64,000 bases of DNA from Eledone cirrhosa (Eukaryota): positions 58,838,001 to 58,902,000 of the forward strand of contig OZ024740.1 in the NCBI GenBank assembly GCA_964016885.1, written 5' to 3'. Made by a program: the position numbers and the translations under genes. Below the pieces are notes generated by a model. The model was not told where the DNA came from, did no database searches, and was given only the letters and a program-made list of their open reading frames with translations. Shown here one piece after another: positions 9,883 to 63,290 of the stretch (its first letter is position 1; each line of letters begins with the position of its first letter).

Positions 9883-10622
9883 CCCTTTTATTACCATATT
9901 TCTAATGATAGAGACTGTTTATAATTTTTAAATGATTTTGAAAATTATCAGAAATTTGGTTGAATTTAGTTATATAACTAACTGTCTAACCCATGCAAGC
10001 ATGGAAAACTGATGTTAAAAAGAGGTGATGATGATGATTTCTCATTGTTAAGTTGGTGTTTGAAGTATAACTTAAAAAAGATTTATACATAAAATTATGA
10101 TGGAAGGTTTTTAAATAAATATAAACACTTTAGGCACATAGCTTAGTGGTTAGAGCATTGGGCTTGCAATCGAAAGGTTGTGAGTTCAATTCTCAGACCG
10201 GGTGATGTGTTGTTTCCTTGAGCAAGACACTTTATTTCACATTGCTTCAGTTAATTCAGCCGTAGAAATGAGATGTTAGGACTGGAGTCCCTATCATTCC
10301 ACTGCAAAGTTGTCGTGGAGGTGCCACGGCAGAAAAGCACCCAGCCCACACTGTAAAGTGGACGTGTAGGCGCCACGGAAAAAAAAGCACCCAGCACTCA
10401 CTGTAAATGAGGTTGGTGTTAGGAAAGGCATCCAGCTGTAGAAATCAAGCCAGAATCAGTTCCTGTATGAGCAAGACAAAGTCAGCCGACCGGACACTGA
10501 CCACAACAGGACAACCCGTCTAACCATTGCTAGCGTGGAAGAACGGACGTAAAAAGGTGATGATGATTTAAGACCAACAGTTTTGTTTCAAATAACCAGG
10601 GGGCGGTTTGATATCAAAAAGG
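9883..10622. mobile_element. Degenerate piggyBac-type MITE hosting a SINE
   Basis: Left end TTAA-CCCTTTTATTACC; degenerate right end GATATCAAAAAGG-CTAA. Confidence 0.4.
10132..10567 (+). mobile_element. SINE family A (tRNA-derived head, CORE-like domain, RTE-derived tail)
   Basis: Box A TAGCTTAGTGG, box B GAGTTCAATTC, CORE/MIR-like CCTTGAGCAAGACACTTTATTTCACATTGCTTCAGTT, GAT-repeat end. Confidence 0.9.
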
Positions 10623-14813: not shown

Positions 14814-14956
14814 ATATATAACATATATTATATATATATATTATATATATATTACATATATTATATATATATTACATATATGTATATATTGTATATATAT
14901 ATTATATATATGTATTATATATATATATATATATTACATATATTATACATATTTAT

Positions 14957-15297
14957 GGAGGCACATGGCTTAGTGGTTAGAGCATTGCCCTTGCAAGCGA
15001 AAGGTTGTGAGTTCAATTTTCAGACCGGGTGATGTGTTGTTTCCTTGAGCAAGACACTTTATTTCACATTGCTCCAGTTTACTCAGCTGTAGAAATGAGA
15101 TGATAGGGACTGGGGTCCCTATCATTCCACTGTTAAGTGGTTGTGGAGGTGCCACGACAAAAAAGTACCCAGCACTCACTGTAATGAGGTTGGTGTTAGG
15201 AAGGGCATCCAGCTGTAGAAATCAAGCCAGAATCAGTTCCCGTCCCACCCTTGCAAGCAGGGAAAAGCAGACGTAAAATGATGATGATGATGATGAT
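14957..15297 (+). mobile_element. SINE family A
   Basis: Complete head, CORE-like domain, RTE tail and (GAT)n end. Confidence 0.92.
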
Positions 15298-15413
15298 ATA
15301 TATTTCCTGCTCTATCAAGCGTTAACCTAATATATACCTTCCATATACTGTACCGATTGTATTATTATTTCTGTTTACCTTTTACATACATATATATACA
15401 TATATTATATATA

Positions 15414-15799
15414 TCATCATCATCATCATGATACGTTTGCTTTCCCTGCTTGCAAGGGTGGAACGGGAACTGATTCTGGCTTGATTTCTACAGCTGGATG
15501 CCCTTCCTAACACCAACCTCATTTACAGTGAGTGCTGGGTGCTTTTTTGCCGTGGCGCATACGCGTCCACTTTACAGTGTGGGCTGGTTGCTATTTTGCC
15601 GTGTCACCTCCATGACCACTTTTCAGTGGAATGATATGGACCCCAGTCCCTATCATCTCATTTCTACAGCTGAGTAAACTGGAGCAATGTGAAATAAAGT
15701 GTCTTGCTCAAGGAAACAACACATCACCCAGTCTGAGAATTGAACTCACAACCTTTCAATTGCAAGGCCAATGCTCTAACCATTAAGCCATGTGCCTCC
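15414..15799 (-). mobile_element. SINE family A
   Basis: Reverse complement of the same consensus; lies tail-to-tail with 14957-15297. Confidence 0.92.
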
Positions 15800-15928
15800 A
15801 TATATATATACATATATAGTAAAAATAATAAATTTGAAGACTAAAATCCAAAGAGGGCTTGATAAGGATAAATATATATCAAATATATAAGAACCATAGA
15901 GCAAATATTTATTAAAATAGCAGATTAA

Positions 15929-15980
15929 AGTTTAAGCAAAGAATCGCTGCTTTCACCCTTAACGGGATCTTTTGAAACTA
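15929..15980 (-). ncRNA. Degenerate type I hammerhead-like fold
   Basis: UAGUUU-CAAAAGA-UCCCGUUAAGGGU-GAAA-GCAGCGAUUCUUUGC-UU-AAACU; core has two substitutions versus CUGANGA. Confidence 0.45.
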
Positions 15981-17011
15981 AAAAAAATCAATCTGTGAAC
16001 GCAGAAGTAAATATTTCGAAAAACGTTGCAACTGAAGGAAGACAGGAAAATGATACTTTGGTTCGTAGAAACGTTCCCTGGCAAAGAACGGAAAAAACGA
16101 AGATAATATGTCATTATTTGGATCGGTGAAAACAATTACACGCAAAGACAAAACCACGTTTATTGTATAAAGGAAGTCGTAGACTAATATTCTATTAGGT
16201 GGTTCGTGGAGACGTTCTCTGGCAATGAACGGAAAAAACGAAGATAATACATTATTATGTGGAATGATGAGAACAATTACACGCAAAGACAAAATCACGT
16301 TTAAGGTATAACTGAAGTCGTAGACTAAAATTCTATTTAGGAAACCGAATGATTCTCGGCTTCAGAGTTAAGAATAATGTAAATAAATTACAGAGGTAAT
16401 TGAAATCAACAAAAATTAAATATATACATGCACGCATCCATATACGTACATACACATGCATACGCGAAACACCCACCATGGGTATGCAAATACAAGCACG
16501 TACACAAAAACACGCACACACATACAGAATCCACGCAACGCCTGAACCCGCACACATACGAACGTATACACCAAATACACATAAAAATATATATATGTGT
16601 GTGCGTTTATACATATAATTATATAAACATATATAAATATACACACATAAATATGTATATAACGCGCGCACACACATACCTACATGTAAATCCACATGTT
16701 CACTAAACGTACGTCAACCAAAACACAAAGTACCCATATACACACACCCTACATACGTGCAAACCCGCATACTCATACAGACGCAAAACTCACGTATACA
16801 CATAACCATATGCACATGTACCAGTATATATAATATAATATATACGCCTATAACATATACAAGCAAATATACGTACGAGAAAGTATACGTACCTTCATAA
16901 AACATACAGGTAATATATACTTACCTATACAAATAAGTAATAACATAAGTATAAACATAACATATACTTAGCTACCACATCAAGACATAAATTATCTGCG
17001 TATAGTTCGTA

Positions 17012-17770
17012 CTATCCGTTAGGGTATAATGTGAGGCTGTAATACAGGAAAGTTTTGTGCAATTTATGTTTACAAGCCAAAATTGCTTCAGATGTTTTGT
17101 TTAAGATGTGGTCTTTGATGTAGAGTATTTCCAGGGCTTCAGCGGCGCAGAAGTCACATGGTCTTTTATTTCCGTTATACGATCTAGCTTTAGCTAGGAT
17201 CTCTCAGTGTAACTTATATTGGGTGTGGTTGTCTTTTAGACTCCAGATATAAGCTGAAAGTGACGTCATATTCCTTCTTAGAGGGTAACGAAAAGAATGG
17301 GTATGCATGTAAAGAGGCTGCTTGAAACTATTGGCGGTTAACCCTATGTAGGCCCTACGGGACGTGGGTGTTACAACCTTACATTTGTAGACAATGTTAC
17401 TAGAGAGGCATTTCCCGGATAGGGGGCAATCAGCCCGATTCCTACAATTAGAGTTAGTACTAACTACAGGGCTGCACGTGTTCCTACGGCTAGGTAGTTT
17501 AGCTAAATTTGAAGCTGTGATGTTATGTACAAGGTTAGGAGTCGTAGAGTAAGAAATTTTAATGGCATTTCTATTAAAAATGTTACTATATTTATGTGCT
17601 GGGAAAAATGCTTCATAATAAGGGAGAGAAAGATCTTAGCTAATGGTGTGGCCACCTCCATATTATATGGTGGGTTATACCATATAATGCGCCGGGATCT
17701 ATTTTTCCTAGGTCTATTCTCATATTCTGTACATGCTACCTTATCGACAAATCCACTCCAAGCAAGAGCT
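17012..17770 (-). pseudogene. PLE linker + GIY-YIG endonuclease, frameshifted, with an internal stop
   Basis: Manual translation: RSRRIIWYNPPY...; SNCRNRADCPLSGKCLSSNIVYKCKVVTPTSRRAYIGLTANSFKQ...TSLSAYIWSLK...KLH*EILAKA...CDFCAAE...LNKTSE...CKH; stop TAG at 17012-17014. Confidence 0.88.
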
Positions 17771-18137
17771 CCATTGTAATATGTGGAATGGTCGGTGAAA
17801 ACATGCTCGTTTGTAGATAGACGTGGTTTTGTCTTTGCGTGTAATTCTTCTTTTGCCCCACATAATGATGTATTATCTCCGTTTTTTCCGTTCATTGCCA
17901 GAGAACGTCTCCACGAACCACCTAATAGAATATTAGTCTACGACTTCCTTTATACCATAAACATGGTTTTGTCTTTGCGTGTAATTGTTTTCTTACTCCA
18001 AATAATGACGTATTATCTTCGTTTTTTCCGTTCTTTGCCAGGGAACGTTTCCACGGACCAAAGTATCATTTTCCTGTCTTCCTTCAGTTGCAACGTTTTT
18101 CGAAATATTTACTTCTGCATTCACAGATTGATTTTTT

Positions 18138-18190
18138 TAGTTTCAGAAGATCCCGTTAAGGGTGAAAGCTGCGATTCTTTGCTTAAACTA
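18138..18190 (+). ncRNA. Degenerate type I hammerhead-like fold (U4A)
   Basis: Stem I UAGUUU/AAACUA, core CAGAAGA, stem II CCC/GGG, GAAA, stem III GC...GC, CUU triplet. Confidence 0.55.
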
Positions 18191-18484
18191 TAATCTGTTA
18201 TTTTAATAAATATATATATACATAAATGGAAAAAAATGAAATTTCATTTCTCACTCTTAGTACGGTTGATACTTAAATATAAGTATTATACGTACATACA
18301 TATGTGTATACAGACGTACAGTAGTATGTATATACGTACATACATGCACATATATATATATGTACGTATGGGTTTACCGAACATTTATTATAATGCTCGG
18401 TTTGTTTGTAAACAAACAGCCAAAATTTTTAGCCGTACAGTGTTCGGCAACCATCATTGCCCTTTTGTTCAACACTGATAAAGG

Positions 18485-18529
18485 AACAATGAACTAGTTT
18501 CTAGCTTATTAGCTGTCATCAGCACCATT
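18485..18529 (-). ncRNA. Minimal type I hammerhead ribozyme
   Basis: AAUGGUG-CUGAUGA-CAGCUAAUAAGCUA-GAAA-CUAG-UU-CAUUGUU; palindromic AACUAGUU stem III; C.A mismatch at 10.1/11.1. Confidence 0.75.
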
Positions 18530-18813
18530 TACCTTCCTGTCAGTCGATTGAACGTTTGATAGTATATACTTTCCTTATGCATATTAACGGCTGAGCAGCC
18601 TAATTTGCATATCGAGTGAGTTAATCAGCCGGCGTACTGAAAACGATAAATGGAAAAAAATGAAATTTCATTTCTCACTCATTTTTTTCCATTTATCGTT
18701 TTCAGTACGCCGGCTGACTAACTCACTCGATATGCAAATTAGGCTGCTCAGCCGTTAATATGCATAAGGAAAGTATATACTTTTAAACGTTCAATCGACT
18801 GACAGGAAGATAC

Positions 18814-18856
18814 ACGGTGCTGATGACAGCTAATAAGCTAGAAACTAGTTCATTGT
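18814..18856 (+). ncRNA. Minimal type I hammerhead ribozyme
   Basis: ACGGUG-CUGAUGA-CAGCUAAUAAGCUA-GAAA-CUAG-UU-CAUUGU; predicted cut after 18850. Confidence 0.75.
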
Positions 18857-18948
18857 TCCTTTGTCAGTGTTGAACAAAAGGGCAACGATGGTTGCCGAAC
18901 ACTGTATGGCTAAAAATTTGGGCTGTTTGTTTACAAACAAACCGAGCA

Positions 18949-19842
18949 GAGTCAGAACGGGGTGGAAAAAGTTCAGAGAGCTTATACCACTATTGGCCGC
19001 TAAAAGGTTCTCTCTAAAAATGAAAGGCAGGCTGTATGATGCCTGCATACGAACAGCAATGTTACATGGCAGTGAGACTTGGGCATTGTGTGCAGAGGAT
19101 ATACGCAGACTGGAGAGGAATGAAGCTTGCATGTTCCGTTGGATGTGTAATAGTAATATACGTGAACGGCAAAGCATAAATGAACTAAGGGAGAAATTAG
19201 GAATAAGAGGAATCAGATGTTGTTTACTCGAGAGAAGACTACGTTGGTATGGTGACGTCATGCGCATGAAAGACGGCAGCTGTATAAAAAAGTGCAGGGC
19301 GATAAAAATAGACGGTAGCCACGGTGTAGGCAGACCCAGAAAAACCTGGGACGACTTGATAAATTCCGACCTCACACATTTACACCTCTCCAAGACATTG
19401 TCACTGGACCAAGATCTTTGGCGCTACACAGTAATACAGAAGACCCGCCTTGCCTAAGTACAAAGCGAAACCTACAGTCAGTAGGCACCTCTAACAAAAA
19501 TACACCCCGTCCCACCACCCCCACCCTATCCACACCACCTCTTTCGATGTAAAGTTATGTTGGTACCACAACATCCAGTCCGAAATAAATGAGGTCATGT
19601 ATGTGTCATGAAAAAAAAACACACAGTCCACGCTGTAATGTGGCTGTGTAGGAAACACGGTAAAAACCTCCCAGTCCACACTGTAAACGTGGTTGGTGTT
19701 AGGGAGGGCATCCAGCCGTAGAAAACCTGCCAGACAGTCCTATGCGAGCAAGACAACCAATCTTGCCTCAAGTGGGAAAATTCCCATCCAAACCCATGCA
19801 AGCGTGGAAGTGGGACGTTAAACGATGATGATGATGAAGATG
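18949..19842 (+). mobile_element. 5'-truncated RTE LINE (same family as 59.8-63.6 kb)
   Basis: RVRTGWKKFRELIPLL...GRPRKTW...TRLA* followed by a long 3' UTR and GAT tail. Confidence 0.95.
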
Positions 19843-19974
19843 ATGTTCGGTAAATCCATACGTACATATATATATGTGTGCATGTATGTATGTATATACA
19901 TACTACTGTACGTCTGTATACATATATGTATGTACGTATAATACTTATATTTATATATACATATATATATATAT

Positions 19975-20913: not shown

Positions 20914-21974
20914 ATATATATATATATATATATACACACACATACATACAGATTTGAGTGAAATAGATAGAAGGGTAAACTTGTTTGAATATCTAGTTAT
21001 TCATAACTGAAAATGTATGTATGTAATGATAGGTAAATATACATAGCTTGGGTAGTTAAATGAATAAAGTAGTGATTTAGAAATTTGATTTTGATTTGCA
21101 CAAAGCCTGTAGACTGTTTAATATTTACAATTGTATTATTTTAGAAAAATAGCCAGAATTTATTTTCTATTGTTCTAGAGGAATGTAACACAAACTCATT
21201 TTATTGCAGAGCCCTTCAGCAATTTTCAAAACATTACAGAACCTACACCTATATTTCGCAGACAATTCTTACCATCCTGATTTAAAATAAGACATTAAAT
21301 TAAATGAAATCCTTTCCACAGAGAGAATTTATTTTATAAAAAAGCATCTAAGGAATTTTATTTAAAAAAATACACTTTATCTTGTAGAACCCTTGAAATA
21401 TTTTAGCAGAATCTACTTTAAGAAACAGTTATAAAGTAATTAAAATAAGATTATCTAAAAATAAAAGGTCAAATTCTCAAATGTAATTTCTTTATTTTAA
21501 ATGTTCTCATTAAAAACAAAATCCAAAAAACATTTTCAAGATAGCCAAATATTTACTTTTCTTTTAAGCTGGTGATTTATTGTGCAATAATAGCTACTTT
21601 CTAGTCCATAGGGATAACTTAATATAAAGAATCCCAAACAGTACTATATATAAATATAATGCAAGATTTAGACTGGAGATAATTGTTGTAAGGAGATGCT
21701 GTGCTGTGACAACTTTTGTATTTTCTATTGTTTTTGTTATTTCATTCTTTTCTAGCAGCTGTTGTATATATTGTTTAGCCCCATGGCCAACTTCCATTGA
21801 GTAATCCTATGATCTAATAGTGGGATAGTAATTGCGAAAGTTATTGTTTAGCCCTAGGCCAATTTTGATTGAGCAGTCCTTTGATCTGACAGCAGGATAG
21901 AAGCTGCTATAGTTATTGTTTAACCCTTGGTCAACTTCCATTGAAGCAGTCCTATGTCCAAAAGCATTTCATTA

Positions 21975-36235: not shown

Positions 36236-39200
36236 GAGTCCAGTAAGACATCCTCTCTAGTGCTGGTGGCACAAATAAAAGCACCCAGTCCATGCTGTAT
36301 AGTGGTGTTAGGAAGGGCATCCAACCAGTGTATCAATGCCAAAACAATTATAAGCACAGCAACAAGTATATAGGAACAACAAAATATGAAGACGTCGCAT
36401 CTCAGAGTTGCAACACTTAATGTTGGCACTCTCAAAGGTAGATCTGCTGAAATAGCGGAGATCCTGGAGAGAAGGCATATGGATGCGTGCAAGAGGTGAG
36501 ATGGAGAGGTGCCTCTGCGAGACTAGTCGCAGGCAAACATCTTAGCTATAAGCTTTTCTGGGAAGGTAAGGATGATGGGTTAGGGGGAGTAGGCATTTTC
36601 CTGGCTGAGAAATGGATCAATAAGACAATAGAGGTAGTTGGAGTTAGTAATCGAATAATTAAGCTTAGATTAGTTGTAGGTAGGAGACTACTGACAATCA
36701 TCTCTGCCTATGCTCCCCAAGCAGGCCTAGGCAAAGAAGAGAAAGACTGCTTTTACGAGCAACTTTTACAAACAACTGCAATGACAGAGGACGGAGACAT
36801 CGTTATGTTAGCAGGGGACTTCAATGGTCATGTTGGACAGCTCCAGGATGGTTACACTGGGGTACATGGTGGGCATGGTTACAGCTCAAGAAATGAAGAA
36901 GGAGTGACACTTCTTGACTTTTGTGATGCAAGTACACTGACTATTTGCAACACTAACTTCCAGAAACCTGCCAACCACCTAATAACCTACAAATCAGGCG
37001 AGCACATAAGCCAGATTGACTTCTTACTAGTTAGGCAGCGGGACAGGCAGATGGTGTCTAATACCAAGGCATACCCTGGGGAAGAATGTACTCCACAGCA
37101 TAGGTTAGTCGTTAGTGATATCTCAGTAAGCAAGAGATGGAATGAGACACACAGGAAGGTGTGGAGAAGAAAGGTCTGGAAGCTAAAAGACCTTTCACTA
37201 AAATACAAATTTAGGAAAGCCCTTTAAGATGTGTATGACGAAAAACAAGACAATTTAGAGACGTATGACATAGATAATAACTGGAATTTCTTACATGACA
37301 ACTTACTGCTGGCTACTGATAAAACTTGTGGCTGGAGCAGGGCTCCAACCAAACAAAGAGTGACCTGGTGGTGGAACAGCACAGTAGATAAGGCCATTAG
37401 AGACAAAAGACTAGCATGGAAGGCTTGGAAAAAGGGTGGGAGTAGAGAAGGATATACAGCAGCTAAGAGAGAAGCTAGACGTCGGGTGTACTTAGCACGC
37501 AGGGAGGCTGAGAGTAGGAGGTTTGCCAATGTTCTGCGATGGGAAGATCAGAGGCGTGCTGTGTTCCACATTGCAAGGCAGTGTGTCAATGCAAATCAGG
37601 ATGTTGTTAGAGATAAATGTGTCCGGAATGATCCCTGTGTACTTAGTGTCACGAATGATCAGAAAAAGGAGGCCTGGAAATGTCGCTATGAGAGACTGAT
37701 GAATGTGGAAAACGAATGGGAGAGAGAGAAATTACCCTTGGTAGATCCGACAGAGGGACCAGCTATTGAGATTGACGAATATAGGGTCCAAGAGGCGATG
37801 AAGGAAATGAAAAATGGTAAGGCTGCTGGACATCGGGGATAGTTGCTGAGATGCTGAAGGCATCAGGGGACATAGGCACTAAACTGGTTGCACGCATCAT
37901 CAATCAGACTATATATGGTGGTGTCATACACAAAGACTGGTGCAGCAGTATTCTCATAAACTGCTACACAGGTAAAGGGGATGCTCTGGAGAGGAGCAAT
38001 TATAGGGGTATAAAACTGATGGATCAGGTTATGACAGTGGCAAAAAGGATATTAGCACAACTAATTAGAGAAAGGGTCAAACTAGATGAGATGCAGTTTG
38101 GTTTTGTGCCTGGGAAGAGTACAACAGATGCCCTCTTCTTGGTGAGACAATTACAAGAGAGGTTCTTAGAGAAAAATAAGCCACTATACTTAGCCTTTAT
38201 TGACCTAGAGAAGGCCTTTGATAGGGTACCCCGATCTGTCATCTGGTGGTCCCTAAGGAAACTAGGTGTTGAGGAATGGCTTGTGAGGACAGTGCAAACT
38301 TTGTACAGAGGTTTTGTCAGTAAAGTCAGGGTAAGAATGGAGTTTAGTGAGGAATTCCAGATACAAGTAGGAGTACATCAAGGTTCAGTCCTCAGCCCCC
38401 TCTTATTCATTATAGTCCTCCAAGCCATAACAGAGGAGTTTAAGACTGGCTGTCCATGGGAACTTCTCTATGCTGACGATCTGGTTCTTATAGCAGAATC
38501 AGTAGAGGAGCTAGAGAATAAATTCTGGCTATGGAAACAGCAGTTGGAAGCAAGAGGACAGAGAGTGAACCTAGCTAAGACAAAAGTGTTGATGAGTAGA
38601 AAAGAGGACAAAACTCTGATTCCGTCAGGGAAATGGCCATGTTCGATATGCAGAAAATGAACTGGCATAAATTCTATAAAATGCACACAATGTAGATCCT
38701 GGGTACATAAGAGATGTAGCGGGATAACAGGTAGGGAGAAATACGTATGCAGTAGATGTACAGGGAAATTAGACAGTAGAAGTCGAAATGATAGACACAT
38801 TTTTCAAATGCAGGTGGGTGCTATAGAAGTGGTGAATAGCTTCCAGTTCCTAGGAGATTAGCATGGGAGGAGGGTGTTCCGAGGCCATAGTATCTAGAAT
38901 AAGGACGGGTTGGAAGAAGTTTAGGGAGCTGCTTCCTCTGCTGACAAAGAAGGGTTTCTCCCTGCGTACGAAAGGCCGGTTATATGATGCCTGTGTGAGG
39001 AGCGCGATGCTGCATGGTAGTGAGACATGGGCAGCAACTGCAGAGGATATGCGACGGCTGGAGAGAAATGAGGTAAGCATGCTCCGTTGGATGTGCAATG
39101 TCAATGTGTGTGAATGACCCAGCATGAATATGTTGAGAGAGAAACTGTGTCTGAGAGGGATAGATGTAGTGTGCGAGAGAGGAGACTGAGGTGGTATGGA

Positions 39201-39440
39201 CATGTGATGCACATGGAGGATGACCGATAGTTGAAGAAGTGCCAGGAAAGACGTGGTAGAGCTAGACCACGAAAAACATGGGCGGTGGTGGTGAGAACAG
39301 AGCTCAGATCACTGAAGCTCACCGAGGAGATGACGAAGGACCGGGACAAGTGGAGAGATGCTGTGCTGAATAAGACCCGTCCCACCCTTGCAAGCAGGGA
39401 AAAGCGGACGTAAAATGATGATGATGATGATGATGATGAC
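36236..39440 (+). mobile_element. Near-full-length RTE-clade LINE (APE + RT + PHD-like finger), inactivated
   Basis: ATG at 36386 MKTSHLRVATLNVGTL; QEVRW, SAYAPQ, AGDFNGH (APE); QFGF, FIDLEKAFD, GVHQGSVLSP, YADD (RT); several stops and frameshifts; (TGA)n tail. Confidence 0.96.
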
Positions 39441-50637: not shown

Positions 50638-51421
50638 ATCATCATCATCATCATCACCGTTTTACGTCCGTTCTTCCACGCTAGCATGGGTTAGACGGGT
50701 TGTCCTGTTGTGGGCAGTGTCTGGTCGGCTGACCATGCCTTGCTCATACAGGAACTGATCTGGCTTGATTTCTACAGCTGGATGCCCTTCCTAACACCAA
50801 CCTCATTTACAGTGAGTGCTGGGTGCTTTTTCGTGGCGCCTACACGTCCACTTTACAGTGTGGGCTGGGTGCTTTTTTGCCGTGGCACCTCCACGGCCAC
50901 CTTGCGGTGGGTGGGGGGGGGGGGGGGCATATTGTTTATATGCTTCAGCATGTACCCATGGGAGGTCGGGTACCCTGTATTACTGCGTGACGCCAGAAGT
51001 CACGGTCGTGTGTCATTGACTTTGAGAGGTGTAGTTGGGTAAGGTCGGCTTTTATCACCTCATCCCAAGTCATCTTGGGTCTCCCCACTCCGCGGTTTCC
51101 ATCAACTTCTAGTGCTCTGCACCTTTTTATGCAGCTGTCATCCTTCATACGCATCACATGTCCATACCAGCGTAACCGCCTCTCCTGCACGCAGCATTTG
51201 ATTCCTCTTATGCTCAGTCTCTCTCTCAATTCCTTTATGCTTTGTCGTTCACGTATATTACTGTTACACATCCATCGGAGCATGCAGGCTTCGTTTCTCT
51301 CTAATCTACGTAAGTCTTCCACCTTCAGCGCCCAGGTCTCACTACCATGCAACATCGCTGTTCGGATACACGCATCATACAGTCTGCCTTTCATTCTGAG
51401 GGAGAAGCCTTTTGCAGCTAA
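50638..51421 (-). mobile_element. 5'-truncated RTE LINE with a SINE-A-like 3' UTR
   Basis: ORF 50945-51469 LAAKGFSLRMKGRLYDACIRTAMLHGSETW...; UTR matches the 10320-10567 SINE tail. Confidence 0.93.
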
Positions 51422-51502
51422 TATATATATACATATGTGTGTGTGTAAAACATTCTTTGATGTATTCATTGAACCTAGTATAACTCTTAAATATATATCT
51501 AT

Positions 51503-52396
51503 ATATATACGAAATAAATTAAATTAAATTAAATTAAGGGAGTCATGCCCGAGACATGCACCATATCCACCGTAGAATAAGCTCAAAGATTCCATTGAAT
51601 AGATCCAAGCATTTTATATCAACTAGAAATTGATTGACATATATATATATATTTAAAATAAACACATGAAACAATCACAGGGGATAATTTGTAAAGTGTG
51701 TAATCACACATAGCATTTTTTAAAAGGTAATATTTGAAGCTCTAGTTAAACTTTAATTAGTTACCTACCTAGCTGTGTGTGATTACACACTTTACAAATT
51801 ATCCCCTGTGATTGTTTCATATGTTTATTTTAAAAATATATATATATGTCAATCAATTTCTAGTTGATATAAAATGCTCGGATCTATTCAATGGAATCTT
51901 TGAGCTTATTCTACGGTGGATATGGCTCGGACATGACTCCCTTAATTTAATTTAATTTAATTTATTTCGGATATATAAACGGCTCCTTAATTGTAGAGCT
52001 AAATCGGTTGAAAGGACTCGGCTGCTATTTATAGCTGTCGACCACCCTATTCACGCCAATGGGAGGACGCTAGCATGTTGTTAGTAGTTTTAGAATTACA
52101 ACATGTGCGACGGGTCACTCGCAGATTTGCATTTGATGTGTAAACACAGATAGTTATTTCTTGCCCCTTGCTGAATATCCAAGATTTGACTACTGTGACT
52201 TTACGGATTATTGGTGAAATATATACAAGGAGGATTAAACATTTTTTAAAAGGTAATATTTGAAGCTCTAGTTAAACTTAATTAGTTACCTACCTAGCTA
52301 TGTGTGATTACACACTTTACAAATTATCCCCTGTGATTGTTTCATGTGTTTATTTAAAAAATATATATATATGTCAATCAATTTCTAGTTGATATA
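51503..52396. mobile_element. Foldback + tandem non-coding element (526-bp unit) with a degenerate HHR
   Basis: 51503-51714 is inverted at 51772-51977; 51714-51871 is directly repeated at 52240-52396. Confidence 0.85.
52166..52230 (+). ncRNA. Degenerate type I hammerhead-like fold (G8U)
   Basis: CCUUG-CUGAAUA-UCCAA...UUGGU-GAAA-UAUA-UA-CAAGG; palindromic minimal stem III. Confidence 0.55.
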
Positions 52397-57830: not shown

Positions 57831-58397
57831 ACTTATATATTAATTTATTAATTCTTACTGTTCAATTATTGTATTGCTGCTACTAAATTTTCTTTTTTAA
57901 TTTTAAATTAGTAGAGCTGGTTTAAAGCTATAGCAGTGCAATAATAGTACTTTTAGCATATTAGTTGATCTGGGCATTTGTCAGACGATATAATGAATAA
58001 TTTTATGTATTAATTAAAATATTAATATATGTAATTTTGCCCTTAACATTAAATTTTAGTAGAGCTGTTTTATTTAGACCAAACATGCTCCTACTTCTAG
58101 CAATCGCTTTGGCCTGCCTGTATCCTTAAATTATAACATCTTCAGCATGTGCGTTCACATTCTGTTTTTGAATTTATGGGGATCAGTCTTTTCTAATCCG
58201 TTTATTAAGACATATCTCTACTGATGATGGGTTGGTTTGTCTTAATGGTGCCATTTATTTAATACTTGGCCCTATTTCTCTTTTACTTACTTTCCAATTT
58301 TCTTTGTCAATGTACATATATATTGAAATATATATAGTGTCTGCAGAAATATAACATTAAAGGAATTTCACCAATCCAGCCTCCTCTCATTTTATTC

Positions 58398-58446
<49 letters not shown>

Positions 58447-58563
58447 TGTGTATATAGTATATTTGGCAATACACTGTATTTAAAAACATTTTGAAAACCT
58501 TACGCTATTGTTTTAAAGTAGTGACTATGTCACTTACTTCTTTTTTCAACAAATAAAGGGAGA

Positions 58564-58611
58564 TAAGCTGACAGATCTCTGTTTCATACTGTTGGTATTC
58601 ATCAGAGCTTA
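58564..58611 (-). ncRNA. Type I hammerhead ribozyme
   Basis: Exact reverse complement of 58804-58851. Confidence 0.92.
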
Positions 58612-58803
58612 GCACTCTCCTTTGTCTGTTGAAAATTATAAATGTTGGATTCTTATAGAATTCCAGTAATAATCAGGAACTGATTATACAGAGCCGGTCC
58701 AGCAAAAATTGAAAATAGAATTGGTGCTCTGAAATAGCGATGTATATATGTATATACATCGCTAATCCAACATTTATAATATTCAACAGACAAAGACGAG
58801 TGC

Positions 58804-58851
58804 TAAGCTCTGATGAATACCAACAGTATGAAACAGAGATCTGTCAGCTTA
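58804..58851 (+). ncRNA. Type I hammerhead ribozyme
   Basis: UAAGCU-CUGAUGA-AUAC-CAACA-GUAU-GAAA-CAG-AGAU-CUG-UC-AGCUUA; all three stems Watson-Crick, GUC triplet, predicted cut after 58845. Confidence 0.93.
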
Positions 58852-58988
58852 TCTCCCTTTGTTTGTTGAAAAAAGAAGTAAGTGACATTGTCACTACTTT
58901 AAAACAATAGCGTAAGTCTTCAAAATGTTTTTAATTAAGCATATACTATATATACATTCATATATACATCGCTATTTCAGAGCACCAA

Positions 58989-59024
<36 letters not shown>

Positions 59025-59229
59025 ATTAAGAATCAATCTTTTACTATCTTTATGTAAATTCTTTCATTTACTGATCTTCTTATGTCATTGCACCTATATG
59101 TGTGTGTGTGTGAGGATAGATAAGGTTTTATTTATGTATATCAAGAATGAATGGTTAAACAAAATAACTGCTTACCAGAGAATTTGACTAAAAATTATCC
59201 TTTGATTCGTATAACATTAGTATCCAAGC

Positions 59230-59838: not shown

Positions 59839-59875
<37 letters not shown>

Positions 59876-60233
59876 ACGTTTAACGTCCGTGTTCCACGCT
59901 TGCATGGGTTTGGACGGGGGTAGTCCCACTTGAGGCAAGAGTGATTGTCTTGCTCGCATAGGACTGTCTGGCAGGTTTTCTACAGTTGGATGCCCTTCCT
60001 AACACCAACCACATTTACAGTGTGGGTCTGGGAGGTTTTTACCGTGTTGCCTACACGGCCACATTACAGCGTGGACTGTGTGTTTTTTTGTCGTGACACC
60101 TACACGATCTCATTTGTTTCGGCCTCGATGGCGCGGCACCAACATAACTTTACATAGAACGGGGTGGTGTGGATGGGGGGGGGGTGTATTTTGTTAGAGA
60201 TGCCTACTGGCTGGAGTAGGTTTTACTATATAT

Positions 60234-63200
60234 TTAGGTAAGGCGGGTCTTCTCTGTTACTGAGTACCGCCAAAGGTCTCGGTCCAGTGACATTGTCTTG
60301 GAGAGGTGTAAGTGTGTGATGTCGGAGTTTATCAGCTCGTCCCAGGTTTTTCTAGGTCTGCCTATTCCGTGACTACCGTCTATCTTTATTGCCCTGCACT
60401 TTGTTATACAGCTATCGACTTTCATGCGCATCACGTGTCCATACCAACGTAGCCTTCTCTCGAGTAAACAACATCTGATCCCTCTTATCTCTAATTTTTT
60501 CCTTAGTTCTTTTATGCTTTGCCGTTCACGTATATTACTGTTACACATCCAGCGGAGCATGCAAGCTTCGTTCCTCTCTAGTCTGCGTATATCCTCTGCA
60601 CACAATGCCCAGGTCTCACTGCCATGCAGCATTGCTGTTCGTATGCAGGCATCGTACGACCTGCCTTTCATTTTTAGTGAGAACCCTTTAGCAGCTAATA
60701 GTGGTATAAGCTCTCTGAACTTTTTCCAACCAGTTCTGACTCTAGCTACAGTACTTTCAGAGCACCCTCCCCCGCTGCTGATTTTATCGCCCAGGTAACG
60801 GAAGCTGTCCACTATTTCTATAGAACCCTCTGCGCAATTGAAAGAGCTAGTATTTTGTGGGCACTTGCTGCTACTTATTGTACCAGAGCACCGGCCACAT
60901 GTAAAATCTATGTTCTTAGTTAGCTTACCTGTGATCCCACTACATCTTTTATGCACCTATACTTTGCATTTAGGACATAAAATGGAGTTTCTACCTACGC
61001 CTTTCCTACACACCGAGCACGACCATTTCCCAGAAGGGACCGCCGCCTTGTTTTCTTTCCTACAAACTAGTACTTTGGTCTTAGCCAGGTTAATTTTAAG
61101 TCCTTTTGACTCTAGGCCGTGCTTCCATGTTTGGAATTTCTTCTCTAGCTCGGCCATTGATTCCGCTATGAGTGTCAGGTCGTCTGCGTATAGGAGTTCC
61201 CATGGGCAGCCTGTCTTGAACTCCTCTGTTATAGCCTGAAGGGCAATAATAAATAGTAGTGGGCTGAGAACAGAGCCCTGATGGACGCCAACTTTTACGC
61301 TAAACTCTTCACTATATTCGTTGTTAATTCTAACCTTGCTGACTGTTTCTTTATACATGGCTTGTATAGCCCTCACAAGCCATTCGTCAACGCCTAGTTT
61401 TCTAAGAGCCCACCAGATAATGGAGCGGGGGACTCTGTCGAAGGCTTTCTCCAAGTCGACAAAAGCTAAGTAGAGGGGTTTACCTTTAGCTAGGTACTTC
61501 TCCTGTAGTTGTCGTACTATGAAAAGAGCGTCTGTGGTACTTTTGCCTGACACAAACCCGAACTGCATTTCATCTAGGTCAATTCTCTCTCTGATTAGTT
61601 GCGCTATTACTTTTTCCGTGACCTTCATGACCTGGTCGATTAATTTAATGCCTCTATAGTTACTCCTATCTAGGGCGTCTCCTTTACCCTTATAACAGTT
61701 AACGATGATGCTGCTATGCCAGTCCTTCGGAACAACCCCATTCTGTACGACTTGGTTAACTATGCGGGTGACCATGGTGTGTCCCACCGTGCCAGATGCC
61801 TTCAGCATCTCAGCAACTATTTCCGAAGGCCCAGCCGCCTTACCCGTCTTCATATCCTTGATTGCCTTACTTATTATACTCCCCTCGACTAACACTGCTG
61901 GTCCCTCTATTGGGTCGATATGGGGGAGACTGTCTTTCTCCCATTTATTCTCCTCATTTAGTAGCCTTTCATAGTGACACTTCCAAGTTACCTTCTTATC
62001 AGCGTCAGTGATGGCAAGTGTGCCATCGTCGTTTAGTACACACTTCTCCCCGACAATATCACGGTTTTCCTTGACGCATTGCCTAGCAATCCTGAACACC
62101 TCACGTTTTTGGTCATCGCGTTGTAGAACATGCTTGAACTTTCTTTCCTCAGCTTCCCTTCTTGCTAAGTACACTTGTCTCCTAGCTTCCCTCCTGGCCA
62201 CTTGATAGTCTTCTCTACTTCCCCCATCCCGCCATACTTTCCAAGCCTGCTTTTTGGCCTTAATTGACCCCTCCACCTTACTGTTCCACCACCATGTTAC
62301 TCTCCTCCTGCCTACAGGCCTGCTCCAGCCACAGACTTCGTCTGTCGCCAACAGCAGGTTTGCTTTCAGAAATTCCCACTCTCCCTCTATATTGTCCGAC
62401 TCTAAATGTTCTTCCTTACTGTCGAAAGCATCAAGTAATATGCTTTGAAATTTATTCCTGGCTGTGGGGTCCTTTAGCTTCCATATTTTTCTCCTGAGGA
62501 TAGTTCTCTTCTGCTGTCGGGTACGTCTCGTCCTGACTATGAGGTCGCTAATTATCAGTCTATGTTGGGAGGTGCATTCTTCATGGGGGAGGGATTTAGT
62601 GTTTACAACAGACACTCTGTCACGTCTTCTGGTAAGAATATAATCTACCTGGCTTGTGTGTTCCCCGGATCTATAGGTGATCAGGTGATTGTCACGTTTT
62701 TTGAAGTTAGTGTTACAGATAGTTAGGTTATTTGCATCACAGAATTCCAGGATTCTGGAGCCTTCCTCATTTCTAGTACCAAACCCATAGCCTCCATGGA
62801 TTTCGTCGTAGCCGTCACAATGTTGTCCAACGTGACCATTTAGGTCGCCTGCGATAATTATATAGTCCCTGTCGGATATTTGGGAGGTAGTTAGCATCAG
62901 TGTCTCATAGAATCTGTCTTTTATAGTGCCGGGCAGTCCGGATTGGGGTGCATACGCAGATATTACTGTCACCGTAGTTCTATTGAGGACAAGTCGTATT
63001 TTAATTATTCTGTCGTTCACTCTATTTACGTCTATTATCTTATCTGCCCACTTTTCTGCTACCATGATTCCTACTCCACCCAGCCCATCGTCGTTTCCCA
63101 CCCAGAAAAGCTTATAACATCGTTTTTTACCCTCAATGAACCTAGCAGACCCACCCCTCCACCTGGTCTCTTGAATACAACAAACATCGACCTCCTTACG

Positions 63201-63290
63201 TTCAAGCATTTCTACAATCTCGTTAGTGCGACCCTTTAGGGTGCCTACATTTATGGTACCAACTCTGAAGTTTTGGATTGCGTTTGGGGG
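60234..63290 (-). pseudogene. RTE APE-RT polyprotein frame (about 1000 codons) with a single in-frame TAG at 60957-60959
   Basis: ORFs 60957-63209 and 60234-60956 abut in frame; the stop replaces the Trp of KC..WVHKRC (compare CRSWVHKRC at 38.7 kb). Confidence 0.93.

Follow-up and report, generated by a model that had tools for sequence, protein, structure and literature searches.

An ageing two-armed copy of a hammerhead-bearing 424-nt repeat in Eledone cirrhosa, likely a retrozyme inserted by a Penelope-like element

A palindrome with a hammerhead motif on each strand raises two questions, namely what kind of element leaves such a structure and how its second arm was made. The palindrome considered here lies in Eledone cirrhosa (assembly GCA_964016885.1, contig OZ024740.1, positions 58,838,001-58,902,000 of the forward strand); all coordinates below are those of the window, meaning the whole 64,000-nt stretch that was analysed. 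Its DNA is AT-rich, of animal type, and rich in (TA)n tracts, tRNA-derived repeats and LINE fragments. With good confidence the element can be regarded as an ageing two-armed copy of an abundant, non-coding, hammerhead-bearing retrozyme of 424 nt, which a Penelope-like element (PLE) likely brought into the genome through its enzyme and which a LINE later split. The insertion footprint, the ribozyme class and the PLE dependence have each been published already, and the element is a decayed addition to a known type.

Architecture of the palindrome and its neighbours

With the continuation of its right arm included, the element spans approximately 18222-19953, with both ends in TA-rich DNA, and GC content over the region is 37-40% in two 2-kb bins. 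Its features are as follows.

18213..18224 and again 19952-19963, plus strand: 12-nt TA-rich word, candidate target-site duplication, not significant
18222..18680, minus strand: long arm of 459 nt, equal to 1.08 units of the non-coding 424-nt repeat; its 3' end is outward (left)
18222..18273, minus strand: one-sided 52-nt tail, including the 35-nt run-on (18222-18256) into the next unit
18231..18252, minus strand: predicted hairpin with AAUU loop (18243-18240); the preferred long end of the family lies at the 3' edge of the loop
18269..18286, minus strand: predicted 7-bp hairpin with UAUU loop, where the preferred short end (about 18274-18277) and the right-arm end map
18474..18545, minus strand: left and more decayed copy of the type I hammerhead motif, predicted cut 18492/18491
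18664..18678, no strand: central 15-nt spacer, part of the long arm; the arms overlap by 2 nt at 18679-18680
18679..18948, plus strand: short (inverted) arm, first part, from unit position 18, by inverted-repeat match
18797..18868, plus strand: type I hammerhead motif, right copy; core 18820-18826 and 18841-18843, predicted cut 18850/18851 (GUU)
18949..19842, plus strand: LINE insertion of 894 nt, 5'-truncated, APE-type, with (GAT)n tail
19843..19953, plus strand: short arm, second part, with a TA-rich tract at its end; 107 of 111 sites match 18274-18384

The core of the structure is a gap-free inverted repeat (18394-18663 / 18679-18948) in which 260 of 270 sites are complementary and 10 differ, and its two halves are separated by 15 nt exactly where the original prediction had placed a hairpin loop of about that size. 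The same prediction gave arms of about 390 bp within 18222-18948, which is correct only if the right arm is followed beyond the LINE; inside those limits each arm has 270 nt, while the full arms measure 390 nt on the left (18274-18663) and 381 nt on the right and differ at 14 of 381 sites. Read in the ribozyme sense, both arms point outward. The outer end of the long arm carries 52 nt that are absent from the short arm, which itself runs from unit position 18 to approximately 405-407, and the locus as a whole contains only 1.08 and 0.9 units. An exact 35-nt direct repeat (18222-18256 and 18646-18680) sets the period of 424, and this sequence has no further match at up to 9 mismatches on either strand of the 64-kb window. 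The 424-nt unit contains neither an open reading frame nor a remnant of one, the longest stop-free stretch in the ribozyme sense being 51 aa, and thus carries no reverse transcriptase or GIY-YIG frame; it is predicted to fold into a branched multi-hairpin structure (z -7.6) that none of 100 shuffles equalled in stability. The 12-nt word that flanks the element was rejected as evidence of a target-site duplication, as it occurs 32 times in the window on both strands together.

Over 902 nt the LINE within the right arm shares 88% identity with a copy at 59856-60743, upstream of which an open reading frame has RVT_1 and Exo_endo_phos domains; the inserted fragment is putatively RTE-like. It entered the right arm later, splitting the element, and removed 9 nt of that arm without a target duplication. 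The related copy belongs to a long APE-type LINE at 59856-63290 (minus strand) with a 777-aa stop-free frame and a (GAT)n tail, of which other copies lie at 36451-39400 and 50945-51523 and whose 3' end is similar to the tRNA-derived repeats found in the window. Two copies of the tRNA-derived repeat stand inverted and 377 nt apart at 14934-15822, and more are found at 10132, 11245 and 20570, two of them giving weak Rfam tRNA matches. A 72-nt tandem repeat of 2.6 copies occupies 21769-21956.

The left end of the element adjoins a separate PLE remnant (approximately 15905-18213), which is 5'-truncated and has the same inverted build, with arms of 400 nt (15905-16303 / 17818-18213, 93%). An internal repeat of 140 nt lies in the remnant, as does a broken C-terminal GIY-YIG frame (17030-17790, minus strand) with a CxCx5C linker and with CxxC and CxH motifs around a conserved E and N. 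These motifs match the Hydra clade as described in the available text of Craig et al. 2021 (PMC8557442), where Hydra PLEs are reported to carry a hammerhead; no intact hammerhead core was found in the remnant. GIY-YIG is present on 27% of the members of the named Atlas clusters, which serves as a lead, and neither Pfam nor a search among longer proteins recognised the GIY-YIG domain of the remnant. The end of the remnant has very high read depth. The remnant shows that this genome does contain PLEs that target (TA)n.

A high-copy family with two preferred ends

Fourteen entries of a sequencing-run search, from 10 studies, match part of the stretch; none of them matches half of its words, and no RNA run is among them. 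The family figures are drawn from the contig runs X1, X4 and X6 and from the RAD-seq raw-read runs X15, X16 and X17, with runs X2 and X3 left out, as well as X5 and X7-X14, which match a small share of the stretch. Depth of contigs in the runs does not equal copy number, and the three samples X15-X17 come from a single RAD study, whose reads depend on restriction sites and favour one subfamily. By read mapping, the 424-nt family is high-copy in two organisms (A and B) and leaves traces in a third (C). Among titles and abstract openings in the accessible literature no published description of the family was found; the PLE consensus sequences and hammerhead lists that accompany Craig et al. 2021 may bear on its novelty.

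The family forms head-to-tail tandem repeats, with junctions in contigs from three organisms. Loose contig ends, matched by eye to 18617-18645, continue into the start of the unit in at least 12 contigs of X1, at least 34 of X4 and at least 1 of X6, and the 35 nt can therefore be read as a run-on across a head-to-tail junction. The original prediction had described a unit that starts and ends with the same 35 nt at a period of 424; the repeat is indeed exact, but it is not a fixed terminal redundancy, as it represents run-on and most copies end 16-18 nt earlier.

The raw reads are revealing of where copies usually end. In X17, 17,678 reads among the rows listed end at 18238-18240, at a depth of approximately 22,100, and the flanks beyond are unlike one another and AT-rich (agreement 0.34-0.35); the same long end recurs among the rows listed for X15 (22,655 reads) and X16 (19,320 reads). 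Another 7,481 reads among the rows listed for X17 end at about 18274-18277, a position placed by eye, in (TA)n and before 18287. The family thus has two preferred ends, separated by 34-39 nt and both placed at a predicted hairpin, on the 3' edge of its 4-nt loop, and the centre of the palindrome in this copy sits on one of those two loops. The right arm of the locus ends at the preferred short end, matching down to 18274. The long arm runs 16-18 nt beyond the usual long end to a rare end at 18222-18224, the X17 depth at 18224-18227 being approximately 0.3% of that at 18244-18247. Because at most 3.4% of X17 reads continue past 18235, tandem junctions are a minority in that run. A T at position 18221 in 38 contigs of X1 and 27 of X4 suggests that other copies also end near there. 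In a joint that leads from 18224 to 18287, reads from other loci connect the end of the PLE remnant directly to the short end of the 424-nt family (177 and 160 reads, with 3-4 start places), which suggests that both families have common (TA)n targets.

The differences between the arms of this copy can be set against the same runs. Eleven of the 14 are transitions and 4 fall at CpG. Ten have a row among the best 40 of 172 variant rows, and of these 6 are private to the left arm, 3 are private to the right arm and 1 is a site at which both arms differ from the majority; one further difference favours the right arm on a single contig, and the 3 that remain lie in or beside a skipped microsatellite. 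At 5 further sites both arms depart together from the letter that prevails in both contig runs, which indicates a single donor for the two arms, followed by separate decay of approximately 1.8% per arm. Three of the arm differences lie within 6 nt, a clustering that is not significant (P 0.085) and by which two templates for the arms are not shown.

The hammerhead motif

Hammerhead cores were located at 18522 (minus strand) and 18820 (plus strand), with CUGAUGA and GAAA core elements, stems I and II and an NUH cleavage site, arranged in the order stem I, CUGAUGA, C, 4-bp stem II, A, GAA, A-CUAG-U and U17. Stem I has 6 bp, its 5' strand being ACGGUG or AUGGUG paired with CAUUGU, and is extended by 5 and 6 bp across bulges; a C.A pair occupies 10.1/11.1 and the stem III region reads AAC-UA-GUU. 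A type I descriptor with checked stems matches four times in the window and in none of 200 dinucleotide shuffles, and a separate core scan suggests that the two matches outside the element are those at 58605 and 58810. Rfam at gathering thresholds returned 2 tRNA-like matches and no hammerhead in the window, and exact-pattern hammerhead scans of metagenome contigs and of viral contigs gave 0 matches each.

Judged from its sequence, the motif has the canonical metazoan type I form, with a helix I of 6 bp, a helix II of 4 bp, a 1-bp helix III and a palindromic tetraloop. It had earlier been assigned to the minimal class of hammerheads, an assignment that the 4-bp helix II, the extended helix I and the palindromic tetraloop show to be wrong. 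In the available text of Cervera and de la Pena 2014 (PMC4209133), helix II of the minimal PLE hammerheads is larger and helix I shorter, G10.1-C11.1 is conserved, and one more base stands between 9 and 10.1; the 424-nt family differs in its 4-bp helix II, its extended helix I and C.A or U.U at 10.1/11.1. What the family has in common with the minimal forms, by the same text, is a predicted dimer dependence, a palindromic helix III region and opposite-strand pairs a few hundred bases apart. Its closest parallels are in the axolotl, as described in the accessible part of Cervera and de la Pena 2020 (PMC7229834): HHR_Amex1 has a one-pair helix III with a palindromic tetraloop, like the 424-nt family, and HHR_Amex2 has U.U at the base of helix II, where the 424-nt family likewise has a mismatch; both axolotl ribozymes cut better as dimers.

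The non-canonical C.A at 10.1/11.1, already pointed out in the original prediction, is the majority state in contig runs X1 and X4, and more than 90% of RAD reads have U.U there. At position 17 run X4 has U, and runs X1, X15 and X16 have A. In stem I, the majority letters in reads convert one G.U pair to G-C in all 4 runs and another G.U to A-U in run X4, so that one side is improved at two pairs; no two-sided change occurs among the best 40 of 172 variant rows. The two versions of the stem I 5' strand, both able to pair with CAUUGU, are present as had been noted, but they do not represent covariation, the left-arm letter being a private CpG transition at site 18527, where C is the majority letter in all 4 runs. 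The family provides a natural hammerhead with C.A or U.U replacing G10.1-C11.1 and with GUU or GUA cleavage sites, fit for a monomer/dimer assay.

Canonical metazoan type I hammerheads need a second copy to stabilise helix III, according to the part of Cervera and de la Pena 2014 that is available (PMC4209133). The suggestion that AAC-UA-GUU pairs between copies agrees with that dependence, but the pairing part would be ACUAGU only, the outer A and U of the 8-mer being the core A14 and the cleavage-site U17; the predicted dimer helix III has 6 bp and -4.8 kcal/mol. The energy of extended stems I and II is -9.3 kcal/mol for the left copy and -14.4 kcal/mol for the right. By energies that leave out core and tertiary contacts, competing hairpins bury the core, so that the hammerhead fold of the right copy exceeds the predicted minimum by 4.5 kcal/mol; stem I has a pairing probability of 0.02-0.04 there and of at most 0.01 in the left copy. 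With majority letters the gap is still 2.2-2.5 kcal/mol. These values, like the Rfam result, speak against activity of this copy. Cofolding of two ribozyme copies swapped the distal part of stem I and did not give the dimer hammerhead, a topology that ViennaRNA cannot score. For comparison, 8 of 9 Xenopus retrozyme dimers are reported without cleavage in vitro in the available text of Li, Clavereau and Pollet 2026 (bioRxiv 10.64898/2026.07.22.740005).

A dimer between the two copies at this locus is not feasible: since the two ribozymes are on opposite strands, a transcript of the locus would carry one ribozyme and one antisense copy, which cannot dimerise together. Such a transcript would likely fold into a long hairpin instead.

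The octamer ATGCAAAT lies 65 nt, and a TATA-like word approximately 25 nt, upstream of the hammerhead outer stem (18560-18610, minus strand), and the two together are a possible internal promoter. Newt satellite 2 has a promoter of the snRNA type; such a reading of ATGCAAAT was not confirmed. The octamer occurs 10 times in the window, a count that is not significant.

Identity of the element and the making of its second arm

The locus is a monomer-type derivative of the tandem family. A tandem copy elsewhere would be transcribed into RNA of 424-nt units, the predicted hammerhead, probably acting as a dimer held by the ACUAGU palindrome, would cut multimers to monomers of 424 nt, and the monomers may be ligated into circles. 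A PLE reverse transcriptase/GIY-YIG enzyme would cut both strands of TA-rich DNA, both DNA ends would be primed at a pair of adjacent hairpins of the RNA, approximately one unit would be copied from each end, and the two cDNA ends would join through the 2-nt overlap. Because the cleavage site is intact in both arms, and hence was uncut or re-joined in the template, and because the long arm is longer than one unit, that template would have been a circle or an uncut multimer. One decayed copy alone adds little; its value is as a modest and testable hint about the way in which PLE enzymes produce inverted arms and about whether retrozyme circles are the templates.

An inverted, 5'-truncated copy with a one-sided tail is the published footprint of PLEs, and PLE insertion is thereby supported. 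According to the accessible text of Craig et al. 2021 (PMC8557442), PLE insertions carry such an inverted copy and a tail of 30-40 bp at one end. In the available text of Frangieh et al. 2024 (PMC11167929), a PLE protein cuts and extends both strands of AT-rich DNA and starts inside the RNA at two adjacent sites of a stem-loop, the interval between them being the tail; ribozyme cleavage is described there as unnecessary for insertion in vitro. The present element resembles this footprint of the EN+ PLEs, as far as these texts describe it, in its inverted 5'-truncated copy, its TA-rich target and its two adjacent stem-loop start sites. The preferred ends of the family, 34-39 nt apart, compare with the PLE tail of 30-40 nt, the tail of this particular copy being 52 nt. 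Unlike the EN+ PLEs so described, the element has no open reading frame and no homology to an identified autonomous partner: no link to an autonomous PLE was found in the window, the best match of the unit to the adjacent remnant being 16 nt (E 0.46), and the unit matches no pLTR of a full-length PLE within this window.

Animal retrozymes have been argued to be non-autonomous PLE derivatives (Li, Clavereau and Pollet 2026, bioRxiv 10.64898/2026.07.22.740005, available text), and the link to Penelope-like elements made in the original prediction agrees with that work as well as with the footprint. As metazoan non-LTR retrozymes are described in the sources available, the family is like them in its non-coding unit within the 150-450 bp range, its low GC, its canonical type I hammerhead and the PLE dependence proposed for both. 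It is unlike them, as so described, in the two-armed build and fixed ends found here. It also has one hammerhead per strand, unlike the two tandem motifs of the retrozymes that the accessible text of Li et al. terms active.

Two-ended priming by a PLE enzyme is the moderately probable account of the second arm. An alternative of lesser but real probability is that this arm arose by fold-back of the cDNA after a single priming event, or by a later inverted duplication at the DNA level; it would alter only the last step of the mechanism and not the identity of the element. A snap-back with a loop of 15 nt and 2 nt of pairing can be drawn at the centre, the departures from the majority common to both arms fit self-copying equally with a common template, and Craig et al. 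ascribe the tail to endonuclease resolution of an intermediate in the text that is available (PMC8557442). However, the short arm ends where thousands of other reads end, so that a passive fold-back needs a second site-specific step, and the PLE protein extends both strands in vitro by the accessible account (PMC11167929).

That the arms are solo pseudo-LTRs, severely 5'-truncated ends of autonomous PLEs with no independent retrozyme RNA, is improbable. The sequence beyond the tail is the unit's own start, both here and in contigs of the three organisms, and the unit shows no remnant of a reading frame; these facts outweigh the observations that most RAD reads stop at the tail and do not run into another unit and that, in the available texts, PLE insertions are mostly 5'-truncated and PLE hammerheads mostly occur singly or as opposite-strand pairs 100-700 bp apart (PMC4209133; bioRxiv 10.64898/2026.07.22.740005). 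PLE palindromes do trouble assemblers (PMC8557442, accessible text), but an assembly fold-back is ruled out for practical purposes by the 894-nt LINE in one arm only, by ends that differ by 52 nt and by the 14 differences in 381 sites, with private changes on both sides, the last being a point that the original prediction had rightly made.

Within the account of two-ended priming, a more specific reading may be put forward tentatively. Two PLE reverse transcriptases, each at one side of a single DNA break, may have started at the twin hairpins of one ribozyme-made circle of 424 nt, the trailing enzyme halting where the other had started; if so, the centre of the palindrome would be the collision mark of a one-lap, two-enzyme insertion from a circular template. 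The short arm runs from unit position about 405 back to position 18, and its inner end thus falls where the usual long-end site lies once one unit is subtracted (17-19); the chance of falling within 3 nt is 7/424, in one case noticed after the fact. Against a collision, the hairpin by itself may be enough to halt the enzyme or to make it switch, and the long arm of this copy started elsewhere.

A second, unrelated hammerhead palindrome of the same build lies in (TA)n at 58385-59031, with cores at 58810 (plus strand) and 58605 (minus strand). Its right arm is without approximately 100 nt at the inner end, and its tail (58950-58993) recurs at its centre (58716-58759), an arrangement that fits one-lap copying.
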